Assembly: GCA_951406725.2 (NCBI GenBank)
Contig: OX597825.1
Coordinates: forward strand, 12,958,001 to 13,022,000
Source: Octopus vulgaris
Taxonomy: Eukaryota
DNA length: 64,000 nucleotides
Direction: 5' to 3'
Part shown: piece by piece, positions 8,194-61,191 of the stretch
How the letters are laid out: each line of letters opens with the position of its first letter
Position numbering within the stretch: position 1 is the stretch's first letter
Notes under the pieces: generated by a model
The model's input: the letters and a program-made list of their open reading frames with translations, nothing else
Database searches by the model: none
Told to the model about the DNA's origin: nothing
Translations under genes and position numbers: made by a program

Positions 8194-8601
8194 GGCGCAG
8201 GAGTGGCTGTGTGGTAAGTAGCTTGTTTACCAACCACATGGTTCCGGGTTCAGTCCTACTGCGTGGCACCTTGGGCAAGTGTCTTCTTCTACAGCCTCGG
8301 GCCGACCAGAGCCTTGTGAGTGGATTTGGTAGACGGAAACTGAAAGAAGCCCGTCGTATATATGTATATATATATGTATGTGTGTGTGTTTGTGTGTCCG
8401 TGTTTGTCCCCCTAGCATTGCTTGACAACCGATGCTGGTGTGTTTATGTCCCCGTCACTTAGCAGTTCGGCAAAACAGACCGATAGAATAAATACTGGGC
8501 TTACAAAGAATAAGTGCCGGGGACGAGTTTCTCGATTAAAGGCGGTGCTCCAGCATGGCCGCAGTCAAATGACTGAAACAAGTAAAAGAGTAAAAGAGTA
8601 A
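8194..8601 (+). mobile_element. SINE family A, full length (reference-like copy)
   Basis: GGCGCAGGAGTGGCTGTGTGG..CCGGGTTCAGTCC..CACCTTGGGCAAGTG..GGCGGTGCTCCAGCATGGCCGCAGTCAAATGACTGAAACA followed by (AGTAAAAG)n. Confidence 0.93.
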
Positions 8602-9484: not shown

Positions 9485-9951
9485 TATGAATCATTTGATA
9501 TTTAATACAATATTATATAATTTGTATACGATATAAATGCGCCCTTTTCAAGCCTAACCAGGCTCATGGGCCCACTTTCTCGGTTTCTATGGCGTATGTG
9601 TTCCCCAGCTGGACGGGACACCAGTCCATCACAGCGTTACTCATTTTTGCCAGCTGAGTGGACTGGAGTAACGTGAAATGAAGTGTTTTGCTCAAGAACA
9701 CAACGCGTCGCCCGGTCCAGGAATCGAAACCACAATCTTACGATCATGGTGCTGACACCCTACCCACTAAGTAACGCACCTCCACCATTTTGTGCACAAT
9801 ATATAATGATATTATAAATTCATAGTGTCCTCCAATCCACTGCCTTCATTCCAATGGTTCCTTTTTCTCTATCGACCCCTTAGTCACCAGCGCTCACTTG
9901 GACCATCTCAACGCCCACCGGGGGCGGCAGAGCCCAATCTGAGAACCTATG
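9317..9951. mobile_element. hAT (Charlie-like) MITE with a nested SINE
   Basis: Termini CAGAGGTTCTTAA and TGAGAACCTATG. 8-bp TSD TGTTAGAG (9309-9316) / CGTTAGAG (9952-9959). Confidence 0.8.
9535..9785 (-). mobile_element. tRNA-derived SINE family C (Meta-like plus V-like domains)
   Basis: Reverse complement of the 14717-14945 copy. Contains GTGTTCTTGAGCAAAACACTT..CCACTCAGCTG..AAATGAGTA and GATGGACTGGTGTCCCGTCCAG. Confidence 0.85.
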
Positions 9952-11537: not shown

Positions 11538-11915
11538 GCGCAGGAGTGGCTGTGTGGTAAGTAGCTTGCTTCGCAACCACATGCCTCGTGGTTCAGTCCC
11601 ATTGCGTGGCAACATGGGCAAGTATCTCTAGTATAGCCGCAGGTCGATTAAAGCCTGTGGATTTGGTAGACGGAAACTGAAAGAAGCCCATCGTATATAT
11701 ATCTATGTATTCATTTGTATGTCTGTGTTTGTCACCCCGACATTGCTTGACAACCGATGTTGGTGTGTTTACGTCTCGTAACTTAGCGATTCGGCAAAAT
11801 CTACTGATAGAATAGGTACTAGGCTCACAAAGAATAAATCCTGGAGTCGATGTGTTCAACTAAAGGCGCTGTTCCGGCATGGCCGCATTCAAATGACTGA
11901 AATAATTAAAAGAAT
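11538..11915 (+). mobile_element. SINE family A
   Basis: Homologous to 8194-8601 from head to tail. Confidence 0.9.
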
Positions 11916-12242
11916 AAGATAAATTAGGGACCCGTTTTTCTGGGATTCTCAATCCCTAGATTCCACCATTCCCCTGAATAACTCTTTTTGTTATTTCTGA
12001 TCCCATTTGGATTCCAATCAATGGAAATTTGCTAAAAATACACGGGCACTTAAAGCCGTCTAAAGACAAAGCCTCCTTCTAATCCAAGAAACGCGATAGG
12101 CTTTCATACAATCCAAAATACAATTTTTAGCAAAGCTACAAGAAAAATAATCAAATTCTTATTTTTTCTATAGGTTAATCCGGTTAAAAAATTATTTTTT
12201 TGCAGAGTTCTTGCGCACAAATTCGTTCATTTCTTGCATTTA

Positions 12243-13787: not shown

Positions 13788-14467
13788 GCTATATATATAT
13801 ATAATATATTATACAAACGCACTCACACACTATGTATGCATGTATATCTGTATTGCTTTCCTCACGGATGTGTGTCTTCAGATAAAAAGTTTCAAGAGTA
13901 AAGCCTCAGGTATCGCATGCCAAGTAGATGCTGTAGCAATGTAAGTGGAACAGAAGGCGATATCTTTTAGGAAAATTTGTTACTGTGATGTTTGTAAGGT
14001 TTATGTTTTTACGTAGGTTGTTTAGCATATCATTTGAAGTTACTTCCTATATTTAACCAGAGCACCGCTAAATCTCCATAAAGGAATCTAGATTGGTTGC
14101 CTCAATAAATAGTTTCCTCTCCCTCCCTTTCACTTGTAAGGAAACATGCTTAAATGGTAATCCGCAAAAGACGCTAACATTTATTCGTCTTGTCTTGTAG
14201 TCCAACAATACTTATAATTATGTAAGTATAATTATATAATACTCATAACAAATAATATCATAACTAGTAATATAATATCACTATTTATATAAATCACAGT
14301 TAATAAACGATTAATATAATTAGTCACTTAGTACTTAGATGCCTTGATTAATTTTCTTGTACTGCCTTCATTACGTTATACCACAAGTTATACACAAAAC
14401 GATTCCTAGCTCGTGTTTACTCTACATTGCTACGTCAAATTATCGAATATACATTTAAAAACAAAAG

Positions 14468-14945
14468 TGGAGGTGCGTCGCTTAGTGGTTAGGGTGTTAG
14501 CATCATGATCGTAAGATTGTGGTTTCGATTCCTGGACCGGGCGACGCGTTGTGTTCTTGAGCAAAACATTTCATTTCACGTTGCTCCAGTCCACTCAGCT
14601 GGCAAAAATGAGTAACGCTGCGATGGACTAACGTCCCATCCAGGGGGGAACCACATACGCCATAGAAACCGGGAAACCTGGCTCATGAGCCTGTCTAGTG
14701 TTTAAAAGGGTACAAGTGGAGGCGCGTGGCTTAGTGGTTAGGGTGTCAGCATCATGATCGTAAGATTATGGTTTCGATTCCTGGTCCGAGAGTCGCGTTG
14801 TGTTCTTGAGCAAAGCATTTCATTTCACGTTGATCCAGTCCACTCAGTTGGCAAAAATGAGTAACGCTGCGTTGGACTAGCTTCCCGCCACTGAAACCGG
14901 GAAACCGGGCCCATGAGCCTGGCTAGGCTTTAAAAGGGCGCATTT
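14468..14945 (+). mobile_element. Tandem pair of SINE family C
   Basis: Two heads TGGAGG(T/C)GCGT..GCTTAGTGGTTAGGG..GGTTTCGATTCC at about 14468 and 14717, with matching bodies. Confidence 0.9.
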
Positions 14946-15304
14946 ATTATTTTTTTATTAAAAAACAAAGATGACGTCGGTTAATAAAATATTTAGATTG
15001 AACTTTCGTGCAGTGATTGTCTACACACGACATTCCTAACTTGTGAACGTTACCCAAAGAACGTTACATAAAGAACATATAATTCGCTATTTCTGTGCTC
15101 GCAACTGATCACAGAAATGGCAAATTATAAACATAACCGAGAGAGAAACAGAAAATTCGCAGACATTTGTATCCGACATATAACACATGCCGTAGTAAAA
15201 CTACAGTGTAAAACACTCCCGTGTTTTAATAGAACCAGCCGAAGCCGATAACAGCAATGTTCAAACTAGTCTCTTGTCAGAATAACGAACGTAAACGAAA
15301 TACC

Positions 15305-15781
15305 TATTTCTTTACAACCCACAAGGGGCTAAACACAGAGAGGACAAACAAGGACAGACAAACGGATTAAGTCGATTACATCGACCCCAGTGCGTAACTG
15401 GTACTTAATTTATCGATCCCGAAAGGACGAAAGGCAAAGTCGACCTCGGCGGAATTTGAACTCAGAACGTAGCCGTAGACGAAATACTGCCAAGCATTTC
15501 GCCCGGCGTGCTAACGTTTCTGCCAGCTCGCCGCGTTGACGAAATACTTATTTCTGTACTACCCACAAGGGGCTAAACACTAAAAGGACAAAGAATGGCA
15601 GATAAACGGATTAAGTCGATTATATAGACCCCAGTGCGTGACTGGTACTTAATTTTATCGACTCCGAAAGGATGAAAGGCAAAGTCGACCTCGGCGGAAT
15701 TTGAACTCAGAACGTAAACAGAGACGAAACACCGCTAAGCATTTCGCCCGGCGTGCTAACGTTTCTGCTAGATCGCTGCCT
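15305..15781 (-). mobile_element. Tandem pair of SINE family B sharing one target site
   Basis: Copies at 15305-15535 and 15549-15781. Outer repeat ACGAACGTAAAC(G/A)AAATACC at 15285-15304 and 15783-15802, with ACGAAATAC between the copies. Confidence 0.9.
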
Positions 15782-16558
15782 TACGAACGTAAACAAAATA
15801 CCATTACAACACAAACCTAAGTCGACGCCGTTTGCAGACACTGCTCAAAAAGCAAACAAAGACACAAAACAGACAAGACTAAAAAAAAAGGGTGAAATGC
15901 CAATCTTTATCATCCTTTGTCCCACTTTCTACCTTTTGATACTTGAAAAATGCAGTTGTCATATTTAAAATAACGAATGTCTCAGAGTCAAGCTAAATGC
16001 TTGACATACATTTTGAAACAGAATGAACTAGAAAGGGCCCACATCAATCACCATCAATTACTCACCGCCTGCTCTGTCAAATTCCAAAGACGTGATAGGC
16101 TAATAAAAGCCTAGCTAAAAGAAAAGAAAAGACTGAAATAGCATCATATCTACCTATTACTCTTTTATGCATACGCTCGTGTATTCTAGACGATTCTAAT
16201 CTTAGACATACCTTACTGTATTTTTAACCCCTCAGAGAATCACAAATTTTTTCAAAGTATTATACCCAGCTATCACACCTAAACATCAGATCATACACAA
16301 AGAATATATATAATACATTCAATAGCCATAATACAATCACGGAAACCATTTCAGCAAACAGTGATATTAACAAACTTTTCGATTTTCACATGTAGCAAAC
16401 TTATTTAATATTCTCGTGGGTGTATCTGTGTGTTCCCATGGGTGTGTGTGTATGTGTGTGTGAGCGCGCACCTGTGTATGTATACGGCTTCAGTATGAAT
16501 ATATCGCTTGTTTGTGCTTGAATACTTACGGGTATCCATCCATCATTCCATCCATCTC

Positions 16559-21569: not shown

Positions 21570-21577
21570 AAAATAGT

Positions 21578-21798
21578 TATCGCCACGCTAGCATACCAGT
21601 CCAGATAGATAGGACAAAAGCTGCCGTTGATTAGCTCCAGGAGACCATCACCTCTAGCTAGGTATGTGACACACAAACCTGTGTCCACTATAACCTTCGA
21701 ACAGGGGAGGTCAGCAGCTTCCCCGAGCTGGTCTGGCTCCCACAGACTAGTTTAGAGGTGTTTTGCCTCTTATCAATGTGGAGTAGCCGAATCCAGCA
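21578..21798 (-). mobile_element. Diverged relative of the 354-nt retrozyme-like unit, between (TA)n tracts
   Basis: Co-linear motifs with 42560-42760. Degenerate HHR on the minus strand: CCACA-UUGAUAA-GAGG-CAAAACA-CCUC-UAAAA-CUAG-UC-UGUGG (21782-21740). Confidence 0.65.
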
Positions 21799-26774: not shown

Positions 26775-26975
26775 AGGTTAATCCAAACGGGAAAACAGAA
26801 AAAACAACAACACGTGGAACAATTACAGTATTATTATTATTAGGCGCTCAGGAAAATGGAAGAAGGAAGGTATGACGTTTCGAGCGGAGCTCTTCGTCGG
26901 AAACATAGGAGAAAGAAAGATCCCGAGACGGGAGGACAGAGGAAAAAAAATTGCAGGTAGTCTTCACGAGGTCAC
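26775..26975 (-). mobile_element. Penelope-like terminal repeat with minimal HHR (same family as 33967-34149)
   Basis: Minus strand reads CCGACGA-A-GAGC-UCC-GCUC-GAAA-CGUC (26900-26874). (TA)n on both sides. Confidence 0.75.
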
Positions 26976-27030: not shown

Positions 27031-27076
27031 GTATATACATATATACATATACATATAAATATATATATATATATGT

Positions 27077-28474
27077 TTCGATGTAGTCAACCTCTACTCC
27101 AATATCCCCCACAACCTAGGACTAGAGGCAATCCAATTCTGGCTAGAGAATCACGCCAACGAACTACCACACCGCATCAAAAAAGAATTTGTGATAGAAG
27201 GGGTTAAATTCATCCTGGAAAATAACTTCTTCGCCTTCAATGACAACTTCTACCGACAAAAATCGGGGACTGCGATGGGTACACGAATGGCCCCCTCCTT
27301 TGCCAACCTAGTCATAGGATACCTAGAGATCAGTCTGTATCGTAAGGTTCTAGAAAGATATGGCAGCCCTTTCTCCATCTACATAGAAAACAACTGGAAG
27401 AGATATCTAGATGACTGTTTCATCCTTTGGCATAAAAATATAGAAAAACTCATAGAATTCCAGAAAATTTTAAACGGACTGGACGTAAACATCCAATTCA
27501 CGATGGAATATAGCCAACAACAACTCCCCTTCCTCGATATCCTCATTAAGAAAGCTAATAATATAATAGAAACAGACATATACTATAAGCCTACAGACTC
27601 TAAGCAATATCTTCCATTCAATTCATGCCACCCCAGACACACCAGGATGAATATCCCCTTCAATCTAGCAAAAAGGATATGCACTATAGTCTCTAACGCA
27701 AACACCAGAGACACACGACTACAAGAACTAAAAGATACCCTAATCACCAGGAACTATCCACCTTCACTTATTGACAAGTGCATTCAACGTGCCCTTCAAC
27801 TTAACATCAAGGAACTGAGACATCCCAAATCAAAGAAAAACTTACAACCAAAAGCCTTACCATACATCTCCACACACAACCCTCTCAATAACGAAGCCTT
27901 CGACACCATCCTCCACAACATACCCCTCCTAAAAAAAGACCACAGAATGAACACAATCCTCCAAACACACACGATCATAAAAAGCAAAAGACAGCCTAGA
28001 TCCATGAAAAGTCTCCTTACACAAGCCCGAATTCACTCTTCAACACAGAAGCCGACAGTAAAAAAATGTGGAAGACCCAATTGCGGGATATGCGACTATC
28101 TAATCGAGGGTTCTGAGTTCTCCTTCAAACAGGGACAACGGTTTACAGTGAAAAGCAACTTTACATGTGCTTCAGAGAACCTAATATACTCACTAACCTG
28201 CTCCGGGTGTCAAGAGCAGTACATAGGCCAAACAAAAAATGGTTTGCGTAAACGAATGGCCCTGCACAGATCCCAGATAAAAATTCCCCAAAACAGAAAA
28301 ATAGCTTTTAGCCAACACATAGATACTTGCGCCAACAAAAAAACACCAAACTTCAGAATTTTCCCCCTCTACCAATTTAGGGACGATACAACCTCGAGAC
28401 AAAGAATAAGTAAAGAAAATCTCTTTATTACAAAATACAAGCCACTTCTTAACGGGTCTACGACAAACAATTAA
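27077..28474 (+). CDS. Penelope-like element ORF, 5'-truncated: reverse transcriptase plus C-terminal GIY-YIG endonuclease (Neptune-type)
   Basis: Open from FDVVNLYSNIP (27077, RT motif A) through QKSGTAMGTRMAPSFANL, WKRYLDDCF, LPFLDILI and YYKPTDSKQYLPFNSCHP. Cys linker CGRPNCGIC, then CASENLIYSLTCSGCQEQYIGQT..RMALHRS..FSQH..KENLFI..KPLLN. The listed start at 27191 is not a true start. Confidence 0.95.
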   Translation, partial: FDVVNLYSNIPHNLGLEAIQFWLENHANELPHRIKKEFVIEGVKFILENNFFAFNDNFYRQKSGTAMGTRMAPSFANLVIGYLEISLYRKVLERYGSPFSIYIENNWKRYLDDCFILWHKNIEKLIEFQKILNGLDVNIQFTMEYSQQQLPFLDILIKKANNIIETDIYYKPTDSKQYLPFNSCHPRHTRMNIPFNLAKRICTIVSNANTRDTRLQELKDTLITRNYPPSLIDKCIQRALQLNIKELRHPKSKKNLQPKALPYISTHNPLNNEAFDTILHNIPLLKKDHRMNTILQTHTIIKSKRQPRSMKSLLTQARIHSSTQKPTVKKCGRPNCGICDYLIEGSEFSFKQGQRFTVKSNFTCASENLIYSLTCSGCQEQYIGQTKNGLRKRMALHRSQIKIPQNRKIAFSQHIDTCANKKTPNFRIFPLYQFRDDTTSRQRISKENLFITKYKPLLNGSTTNN

Positions 28475-28599
28475 TATACCTCAACTTTAGAATAAAAGAA
28501 AAAAATATATATACACACACAAATACTACACTCCATAGAATCCATTACTAATCAGCCCCTTCATAGCTATATTTACACCCATTCATATTCTCCCTTCTC

Positions 28600-28870
28600 T
28601 GTTTTTTTCTTCTTCTTCTTCTTCATCATCATCGTTATCATCATCATCGGCGTCATCATCATCACCACCATCATCACCACCATCTTCTCCTTCTCCTCCT
28701 TCTTCTTCTTCTTCTCCTTCTTCTTCTTCTTCTTCTTCTTCTTCATCATCATCGTTATCATCATCATCGTCGTCATAATCATCACCACCATCACCATCAT
28801 CTTCTCCTTCTCCTTCTTCTTCTTCTTCTCCTTCTTCTTCTTCTTCTTCTTCTTCTTCTTCTTCTTCTCC
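28600..28870. repeat. (TTC)n/(ATC)n compound repeat with a duplicated unit of about 120 bp
   Basis: CTTCATCATCATCGTTATCATCATCATCG recurs at 28621 and 28741. Confidence 0.85.
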
Positions 28871-29287
28871 ACCCCCTACCCCTTAAGTTTGTCACTAATG
28901 TTTTTTAGTATAACACCTACGCTAATTCTATAAACAATCCTGAATTGAACTGAGACTGCCAGCCGCCACTGACCATTCAAAATACGACCATCAGGGCACT
29001 CCCAGATTCTCCCACCCCCTTTCCTCACCAGCCTTCCCTCTACTACCCTACCAAGAACTCACAACTACCTCGAACACACAAGTGAAAACAAGGGAGTCAG
29101 AGAAAGGCAGAATGCCACTTAAATCTGAACACTACTATAGAAATATTCTTTTAAAAAAACTTTTCTTCTAATTTTTCTAAATTTAATTATTTAATCGTTA
29201 CAGTTGAAAAGGTCTCAAAATGACCGAAACCGGTACTGAAATGTTCACTATAAAATTATTTTAGCATTTTCTATTTTTTACTTGTTT

Positions 29288-29349
<62 letters not shown>

Positions 29350-29354
<5 letters not shown>

Positions 29355-29530
29355 TTCACTAAAAAACGAAAGACGAAGACAGGTGGTGTTTAAAACAAAC
29401 AGATGTAATAGTATAACGGTCAGGAAATTGAAAAAGTCTTTTACGTTTCGAGCCTACGCTCTTCTACAGAAAGGGACACAGAAAAAGACAAGGAGAGAAT
29501 AAAATATGTGTAATGGCTACCGATGGAGCC
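29350..29530 (-). mobile_element. Penelope-like terminal repeat with a minimal HHR variant
   Basis: Minus strand reads CUUU-CUGUAGA-A-GAGC-GUAG-GCUC-GAAA-CGUA-AAAG (29473-29438). The 3' end abuts (TA)n. Confidence 0.7.
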
Positions 29531-42504: not shown

Positions 42505-43085
42505 CAATAATAAATCTCTGAACGAGATATAAACAGTAACCGCTCGACAACGTAAGGGTATTAGCCATCTGAATGTGGCTAGCCACTGGGGCGGGTGTTA
42601 CTGATGCTTTTAGCCCCAGGCGATCAACGTCACCAGAAGGACTTTAGACACTATCTCAGTGCCCTTGTGTTATTTGCAAAGGGAGGCTATCCTCCCTCGA
42701 AGACCCGAGTACTACATACGGACTATAGTTTCAAGGTAATTGCCTCTCGTCAACGCATGATAAGCACCGGTCTTCGATGAAGGAGTCCCCTTTCAAATAA
42801 TATATAACGTTTTTCACAGTAACCACTGTCACTGATGTAGAAAAACTGTCTGAAAACAATAATAAATCTCTGAACGAGATATAAAACAGTAACCGCTCGA
42901 CAACGTAAGGGGTATTAGCCATCTGAATGTGGCTAGCCACTGGGGCGGGTGTTACTGATGCTTTTAGCCCCAGGCGATCAACGTCACCAGAAGGAGTTTA
43001 GACACTATCTCAGTGCCCTTGTGTTATTTGCAAAGGGAGGTCATCCTCCCTCGAAGACCCGAGTACTACATACGGACTATAGTTT
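42503..43085 (-). mobile_element. Tandem (about 1.65 copies) 352-354-nt non-coding unit with a type I hammerhead: retrozyme-like or solo PLE pseudo-LTR tandem
   Basis: Near-identical direct repeat at 42503-42731 and 42855-43085. Complete HHR at 42715-42759 and a partial one at 43069-43085. Abuts (TA)n. Confidence 0.82.
42715..42759 (-). ncRNA. Type I hammerhead ribozyme motif
   Basis: CAUGCG-UUGACGA-GAGG-CAAUUA-CCUU-GAAA-CUAUAG-UC|CGUAUG. 6-bp stem I, 4-bp stem II, palindrome ACUAUAGU and a GUC triplet. The G.U pairs form only on the minus strand. Confidence 0.8.
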
Positions 43086-43227
43086 TTACTATAACCCCCC
43101 CCCCCAGTGGCTAGCCACATTCAGATGGCTAATACCCCTTACGTTATATATATATATATATATATATACATACATATATACATACATATATACATACATA
43201 AATATATATATATATATACATATATAC

Positions 43228-60845: not shown

Positions 60846-60994
60846 TGCATCTATTGCTAGTTAATTAGTTCTTTCAGATTTTGGCACAAGGATAGACAAT
60901 AAATTTAGTAGGCGAGTTTTTTCAGTACTATCCACAAAAAATACTTGACTGGTAGCTTATTGAAACCACAACGGATCTTTATTTCTTTATTGCT

Positions 60995-61191
60995 CGACAC
61001 GCTAACGATTTTGACAGCTCACCAACTATATGACGTTGCTTTATATTCTGATGTTTGTGTTTTAATTAGCTTTTCTAATGAAATAAGGATATTGACAAAG
61101 GAAATAATAAGAAAAGCTAATTAAAACACAAACATCAGAATATAAAGCAACGTCATATAGTTGGTGAGCTGTCAGAATCGTTAGCGTGTCG
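60995..61191. repeat. 82-bp inverted repeat (1 mismatch) with a 33-nt spacer
   Basis: Arms at 60995-61076 and 61110-61191. Confidence 0.92.

Follow-up and report, generated by a model that had tools for sequence, protein, structure and literature searches.

Two stretches of the window, by which we mean the whole 64,000-nucleotide stretch of Octopus vulgaris DNA analysed here, are copies of a hammerhead non-LTR retrozyme, a protein-free element of ~355 nt. Comparison of its subfamilies supports a structured RNA domain beyond the ribozyme which appears to have been kept through compensatory change, and we consider it fairly probable that the 3′ part of this retrozyme fold (H4, P5 and tail) positions a Penelope-type RT from another element at two internal starts.

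Two retrozyme copies in the window

The stretches had been taken for PLE termini in a preliminary description of this DNA and proved instead to be ORF-less tandem retrozymes of ~355 nt. Every motif listed there was found in place, and the RNA corresponds to the minus strand, so that 'downstream' runs toward lower coordinates, a point at which the two strands had been mixed. The repeat units (352-361 nt) lie within the 170-400 nt range of retrozyme tandems that run from dimers to multimers, are arranged as partial tandems with inverted truncated arms, carry one type I hammerhead motif each and contain neither a protein-coding ORF nor an LTR. Both are dispersed repeats, the family A query giving at least 50 matches from 40 scored of 1436 candidates and the family B query at least 123 from 40 scored of 2889. 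With two hammerhead core patterns we obtained 739 and 892 exact matches, the reversed controls giving 0. Both tested units of a sister family, F1, matched Rfam Hammerhead_1 with an E-value of 4.8e-06 and 32.2 bits, the gathering score being 34 bits. The window copies A and B gave no Rfam hammerhead match; their cores are of the U3 variant, and U3-A8 covariation in hammerheads has already been described (PMC4209133). The Rfam scan of the whole window was dominated by microsatellite miRNA models. The part beyond the ribozyme belonged to no Rfam family in local scans (best E 0.36-9.8, far under the gathering scores), and its patterns had 0 matches in metagenome contigs and in viral contigs. Of the view that the elements fit no known family, the class can thus now be assigned, as non-LTR retrozyme, while the fold remains one for which we found no Rfam match or published description. 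The families are diverged as had been claimed, A and B being 46% identical, but they are joined by intermediates such as F12, which is 60-61% identical to both. At core position 4 the majorities of F13 and F12 read C, giving CCGA instead of CUGA (L069 565-820 (-), L237 1423-1757 (-)).

The copy of family A (F4) lies at 21572..21798 on the minus strand and consists of one 5′-truncated unit that ends at 3′ site 1 and adjoins (TA)n; over its 227 nt it departs from the majority sequence of the family 20 times. Its type I hammerhead core (21745..21776, minus strand) is of the U3-A8 variant with a private G12 change, a G-to-T in the GAAA core strand at 21754 (1/32 copies). As this change is accompanied by a decayed H4, the letters of copy A are those of what is probably a dead ribozyme. 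The local hairpin proposed earlier at 21704..21724 (minus strand) is the 3′ arm of extended stem I. Hairpin H2 follows at 21667..21686 and hairpin H3 at 21633..21663 (both minus strand), the latter built of an outer helix, an asymmetric loop, a C-G, a U.U and an inner helix, with ends set from the sequence. The 3′ part (21582..21626, minus strand) holds the P5 5′ strand (21620-21626), a small hairpin and the decayed H4 (21582-21597).

Family B (F2) is represented by a full unit at 42506..42850 (minus strand), which ends at 3′ site 2 with the tail included and adjoins (TA)n. Upstream of it stands a partial tandem unit (42851..43085, minus strand) which starts inside hammerhead stem III and is 97.8% identical to the full unit, and the inverted 5′-truncated arm of the insertion (43092..43145, plus strand) ends at 3′ site 1, followed by (TA)n. 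On the minus strand of the full unit we placed hairpin P8 (42817..42840), whose 5′ strand is like a U2 snRNA gene element, with a predicted transcription start near 42777; the type I hammerhead core (42721..42753), with the predicted cut between 42721 and 42720; and the earlier local hairpin (42680..42697), an alternative to the stem-I rod. H2 and H3 together cover 42612..42664 (H2 42646-42664, H3 42612-42643). The terminal domain (42515..42603) comprises P5 (42597-42603 with 42534-42540), H4 (42564-42579), 3′ site 1 at ~42548 and the tail hairpin H6 (42515-42527). At L036/L037/L041, LINE endonuclease and LINE RT pieces flank a family B array whose right arm stops 9 nt before stem I, unlike the usual sites; L036 is the one candidate case of LINE targeting of the predicted start, and no retrozyme continuation was found there within 10 kb.

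Comparison of the two copies confirmed the stem I pairs CCACA/UGUGG and CAUGCG/CGUAUG along with the stem III palindromes, and H2 was recognized in both (21667-21686; 42646-42664); its A.C mismatch in B, as quoted from the plus strand, is a G.U pair on the RNA strand. The block said to be shared by both copies is the 3′ strand of H3, again quoted from the plus strand, and has 13/16 identities between A and B; those at 21644 and 21640 are private to copy A (1/32 copies each), which leaves 11/16 at the family level. The window also contains other dispersed short repeat families (355-773, 8195-8601, 11538-11926 and more), further repeats at 9536-9793 with 14461-14944, at 15295-15788 and at 60993-61191, and a long perfect inverted repeat.

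Predicted fold and its covariation

On the RNA strand, single copies fold no more stably than their shuffled versions (z -1.34 and -0.18, not significant; B plus strand, z -2.15), and the evidence for structure comes from family comparison only. Since the differences among copies of one family amount to scattered decay, the test had to be made at the family level. Clustering of 194 ribozyme-anchored units, together with one further search, gave ten subfamilies that are 46-92% identical, to which F13 and F14 were added later through model R1 (H2-H3-H4), making 12. A 2-copy majority was used for F11, and the pair counts are without F9 (a chimera) and F10 (2 partial copies).

The 12 subfamilies share one predicted architecture of stem-I rod, H2, H3, P5 closing H4, and tail hairpin. 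In separate minimum-energy folds the helices follow in the order P8, a long extended stem I that ends in the hammerhead, H2, H3, P5 and H6, where the long-range helix P5 encloses a small hairpin and H4; single folds give largely the same order, with some helices absent from individual ones. The module had been described as a domain of its own; the fold spans the whole unit, the upstream part too. Three further candidates were rejected: a pairing of the conserved CUCCC with the H3 G-run suggested by RNAalifold (registers inconsistent in F4, F8 and F13, no compensatory change), a kissing loop that fits family A only, and an 8-nt palindrome in H3 that is missing from F2, F3 and F11. The word GGTGACGT occurs ~250 nt upstream of one U2 gene type (L333-L339, L347) and, among retrozymes, in H3 of one clade only (F2, F3, F11).

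RNAalifold predicted 62 pairs on 17 natural copies, 37 of them with both-side change. For 57 named pairs in 17 natural copies, 92% of the cells were paired against 32-46% in slid controls, and both-side change was seen in 25 of the pairs (shuffle mean 14.3, 0/500 as high); the helix strands were located with patterns written once the fold had been seen. Covariation is strongest in the rod around the ribozyme (23/27 pairs). Beyond it, both-side changes in the 17 copies fall in H2 (2/7), H3 (3/10), P5 (3/7) and H4 (2/6), while H6 has no compensatory change (0/4) and is broken in the youngest family, F1.

We then applied a tree-preserving null to the family majorities, in which partners are swapped among pairs of the same type and relatedness is kept. 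H2 and H3 gave 12 both-side cells in 10 families against 3.3 in the null (4/20000 as high), and 20 against 5.9 in 12 families (0/10000 as high). The terminal domain was weak in 10 families, where the P5 3′ strand of F1 had been mis-picked (6 versus 2.7, 864/20000 as high); with this strand corrected, 12 families gave 20 versus 6.3 (0/10000), 8 of the 20 cells coming from P5 of F13, whose register was chosen by complementarity search. In F13 and F14, which lie outside the training of R1 and were found via this model of the tested structure itself, 66/72 cells are paired, and 5/11 formerly invariant H2/H3/H4 pairs have changed, 5/5 of these on both sides. Counted by hand on the ribozyme strand, G.U cells number 21 and A.C cells 4 in the 3′ helices. 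The loci were ascertained with queries spanning the ribozyme. The suggestion that homologs be collected, modelled and tested for covariation was carried through, and covariation holds under both the shuffle and the tree-preserving null, with 20 versus 5.9 both-side cells in H2 and H3 of the domain beyond the ribozyme.

A second catalytic motif had also been suggested for this region. H3 has an internal loop with a conserved C-G and U.U of the kind typical of structured RNAs, a point in favour of H2-H3 or the terminal domain being a second ribozyme; the C-G is broken in F8 and F13, no Rfam match was obtained and the genomic ends form no third cluster, which makes this reading hardly credible. 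A SECIS element, which has a RUGA...GA core, an 11-13 bp helix and an AAR loop, was likewise rejected, as the AUGA word is lost in F3, F4 and F12 with no 3′ GA partner in register (alignment judged by eye) and local scans gave no Rfam SECIS match.

Genomic ends and a candidate source of the reverse transcriptase

In seven families, 201/227 genomic 3′ ends lie at two sites (103 + 98), counted in windows of +11..+20 and +55..+82 past H4 that were chosen once the data had been seen and for which ~24 ends are expected by length. Site 1 is ~16 nt past H4 and site 2 past the tail hairpin. In 7/7 families the modal site 1 falls inside the loop closed by P5, 13-19 nt past H4 and 6-12 nt short of where the P5 3′ strand begins, and its own letters vary between families; both sites are U/A-rich. 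F13 and F14 have two 3′ end clusters as well, the last bins being the query ends. The 5′ ends are scattered over the unit, with a departure from uniformity (KS p 0.004) and no pile-up at the predicted cut (5/248 versus 4.9 expected). The cut is crossed by 188/237 segments, and twice or more by 37/237, in a sample whose ascertainment favours crossing; of the off-site breakpoints, 2/43 are exactly at the predicted cut, a weak and indirect sign of cleavage in vivo. Head-to-head arrangement was seen in 76/162 insertions, and 118/227 3′ ends abut (TA)4 against 338/5000 random places. Two alternative 3′ ends, partial tandems with an inverted 5′-truncated arm and a microsatellite bias, the marks of PLE-mobilised insertions, were thus all found, and the combination of scattered 5′ ends with two fixed 3′ ends, the PLE tail signature, fits internal RT initiation on a circle or uncut multimer. 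The proposal of an RT-recruitment or template element finds support in the 3′ part (H4-P5-tail), which carries both fixed ends as would be expected of an RT-initiation element, and not in H2 and H3, which end mapping does not implicate. These two hairpins lie 60-110 nt upstream of site 1 and, in our model, are probably part of the same protein-bound scaffold.

In the mechanism that we propose, the unit would be transcribed, cut by its own hammerhead and ligated to a circle, as for the retrozymes of mussel, coral and axolotl in the available portion of PMC7229834. A PLE protein would bind the folded RNA and nick (TA)n DNA, and cDNA would start inside the P5-closed loop (site 1) or past the tail hairpin (site 2). 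From there the RT would copy back through H4, H3, H2 and the ribozyme, and go on around the circle, or along a multimer left uncut, until it dissociates. We infer a circle or uncut multimer as the template because a cut linear monomer primed at +175 cannot yield copies that run upstream through the cut. At L043/L134 (~1501-1560) a short ribozyme segment stops exactly at the cut and resumes inside H3, a junction as expected of a jump to the cleaved 3′ end. Retrozyme pieces of the H4 region are also present in AT-rich surroundings at L082 (3060-3250) and L335 (776-895), those at L082 coming after a sequence that we take to resemble a Helitron-type 5′ end.

The main rival reading is that the fold is selected for the RNA's own life, through stability of the circle, ligation, a hammerhead kept foldable or silent, or a host protein, and that the ends are set by short U/A-rich tracts pairing with nicked (TA)n DNA. 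The U/A-rich letters of both sites and the concentration of covariation in the rod agree with this, as do the high self-pairing and abundance of metazoan retrozyme circles in the accessible part of PMC7229834 and the two ends that an autonomous PLE has without such a fold. Stability alone, however, needs no identical helix order and register across families as diverged as these, and the distance of site 1 to H4 and P5 is constant although its own letters vary; we regard this reading as rather unlikely.

The autonomous PLE of the window is a candidate source of the RT. It is 5′-truncated (27059..29292, plus strand), with an RT and GIY-YIG ORF at 27059-28474, both domains being weak Pfam matches under the cut-offs, and a hammerhead of its own at ~29204-29235. 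Its family is young, 150/150 scored matches being identical in the endonuclease region and many having 784-aa open frames, with a further 417-aa frame upstream in L234/L235. The linker CX2-5CxxC given for the Neptune clade in the part of PMC8557442 available is present, a likeness by linker. The hammerhead at the 3′ end of this PLE is unlike that of the retrozyme and of the minimal type, and behind it come ~55 AT-rich nt and a tail of ~38 nt; the family has two 3′ ends too, without a comparable fold. Since it is without the module, RT and cargo share no visible recognition element, and the true partner PLE may be unsampled.

Next in rank stands the reading that the unit is the detached pLTR of such an unsampled autonomous PLE family, in which the module would be an ordinary terminal structure. 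It draws on Xenopus, where 24/57 retrozyme families match Repbase elements and 21 of 22 such elements are PLEs matched at their termini, according to the accessible part of bioRxiv 10.64898/2026.07.22.740005, and on the sequence examined here being ~1.5 Mb of a 2.8 Gb genome. Against it, the same-strand layout of an ORF followed by the module was found at 0/183 module-bearing loci, model R1 had 0 matches at the 3′ ends of autonomous PLE copies (85 sources, 645 kb), the readable PLE ends carry different ribozymes and no module, and the retrozyme hammerhead has the canonical retrozyme helix sizes and loop 2 rather than the minimal PLE form. Within this sample the R1 and layout counts give no support to the module being a PLE terminal structure, and we hold a detached pLTR to be improbable.

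Two chimeras join the element types. At L045 a B unit is joined inverted to a truncated PLE ORF, and at L111 the joint lies exactly at two predicted cuts, that of B and that of a second hammerhead element with an end similar to that of the PLE (alignment score 100 versus a shuffle maximum of 72). In this partner family (L111/L112 1501-1640, L263-L272 ~1500) GCAA replaces GAAA in the core of most copies read. The word CTCGT is present past the AT run in the tails of F2, F5, F7 and F12 and in two PLE-type ends, including that of the window PLE (L232), and missing from F1, F3 and F4, and may be there by chance. Minimal-type hammerhead remnants of other PLE-like families lie in the window at ~26870-26900 (-) and 29440-29470 (-), and also at L089, L099, L103, L106 and L107.

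Predicted alternative state, candidate promoter and known systems

The local hairpins GGGGA..UCCCC and AGGGAGG..CCUCCCU of the preliminary description are present as sequences, but in the whole unit the hairpin is predicted to be absent (pair probability 0.000 in 7/7 families folded; 5-17 kcal/mol if forced) because its strands pair with the upstream arm. Without this arm it is predicted to form (p 0.71-1.0). It remains possible in 12/12 families (-4.8 to -13.1 kcal/mol). In 11/11 families for which the comparison was made the corresponding 5′ arm is weaker, and in 8/11 the rod leaves all or most of the conserved CCC unpaired. Folding models suggest that the G/C hairpin is probably a second state, predicted in transcripts which start ~25 nt ahead of the ribozyme and lack the upstream arm.

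A CAGT-core element lies at -55 to -59 in 13/15 U2 snRNA loci, and a similar element 80-86 nt before the ribozyme core in 8/9 retrozyme families. A start 57 nt past it would fall 23-29 nt before the core, and in transcripts from this predicted start the G/C hairpin is predicted in 8 families (p 0.60-1.0); F13 does not fit, its element distance being inflated by a (TA)n run and no local hairpin having been obtained. Genomic 5′ ends do not pile up at the predicted start, where they number 7/248, with 4.9 expected. The snRNA-type promoter element upstream of the retrozyme is thus a candidate, and a lead to follow. One could go further and take the conserved letters themselves as DNA elements of such a promoter and the hairpins as incidental, to which the frequency of the element in U2 loci and retrozymes lends something. 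Against this, the similarity to the U2 element is located in P8, ahead of the ribozyme and outside H2-H4; when 330 nt of DNA from upstream of U2 were locally aligned with 7 units, all matches were AT-rich; and the compensatory changes and G.U bias indicate RNA pairing. We regard this reading as very improbable.

The octopus elements resemble the metazoan non-LTR retrozymes, as far as the available portion of PMC7229834 describes them, in the canonical-type type I hammerhead, ORF-less tandems of ~350 bp (350-390 bp in mussel), GC below 50% and coexistence with PLEs. Structure is given there as minimum-energy folds of single RNAs, without cross-family covariation or insertion-end mapping, both of which are given here. 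A 2020 review (PMC7761336, accessible part) described retrozyme repeats as without a conserved motif pointing to a mobiliser and seemingly without promoters; in the octopus elements we see a fold that is conserved, 3′ ends at two sites as in PLEs and a candidate element of snRNA type. For vertebrate retrozymes, PLE origin and mobilisation were argued from co-occurrence and pLTR homology, and the available part of that work (bioRxiv 10.64898/2026.07.22.740005) goes no further than the ribozyme in structure and does not analyse insertion ends; the octopus units are without sequence homology to the sampled PLE ends.

A further likeness is to the Poseidon PLE of Anolis, for which the part of PMC11167929 at hand shows that the two 3′ ends are internal RT starts and that the minimal RNA extends ~55-60 nt beyond the first start region. 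There, as proposed here, two internal starts downstream of the hammerhead give an optional tail; a start in a stem-loop, a need for RNA beyond the start and AT-rich targets add to the likeness. The Poseidon start region is ORF sequence of an autonomous element, whereas the octopus region is non-coding and a covarying multibranch domain in which site 1 follows the cut by ~175 nt and site 2 by ~220-235 nt. Insertions of EN+ PLEs, in the accessible portion of PMC8557442, share partial tandems, an inverted 5′-truncated copy, an optional tail and the microsatellite bias; the tail of 30-40 nt compares with 43-60 nt in the octopus retrozyme, which has no ORF.

The retrozyme class is therefore known and its mobilisation by PLEs already proposed (PMC7229834; bioRxiv 10.64898/2026.07.22.740005, both as available in part), and the fold appears to be new, since the open literature searched gave no description of helices that covary outside the ribozyme and stand in fixed register with PLE-type ends. 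A bolder reading, which we put forward tentatively and would not expect to hold in full, is that a dedicated RNA scaffold captures a PLE RT in trans and sets the template start like telomerase RNA, coupled to a two-state switch between the hairpin of the first, promoter-driven transcript and the rod of the circle. If this were true, the element would amount to a naturally occurring circular cargo of 355 nt, equipped with defined signals for rolling-circle insertion into (TA)n. On the recognition of animal retrozymes and their copying into DNA the sources available offer proposals rather than a demonstration, and a single in vitro system has shown what a PLE RT recognises on RNA. The octopus genome combines a covarying retrozyme fold, and two likely start sites at a constant register within it, with a young PLE family that is intact, and both questions thereby become testable.
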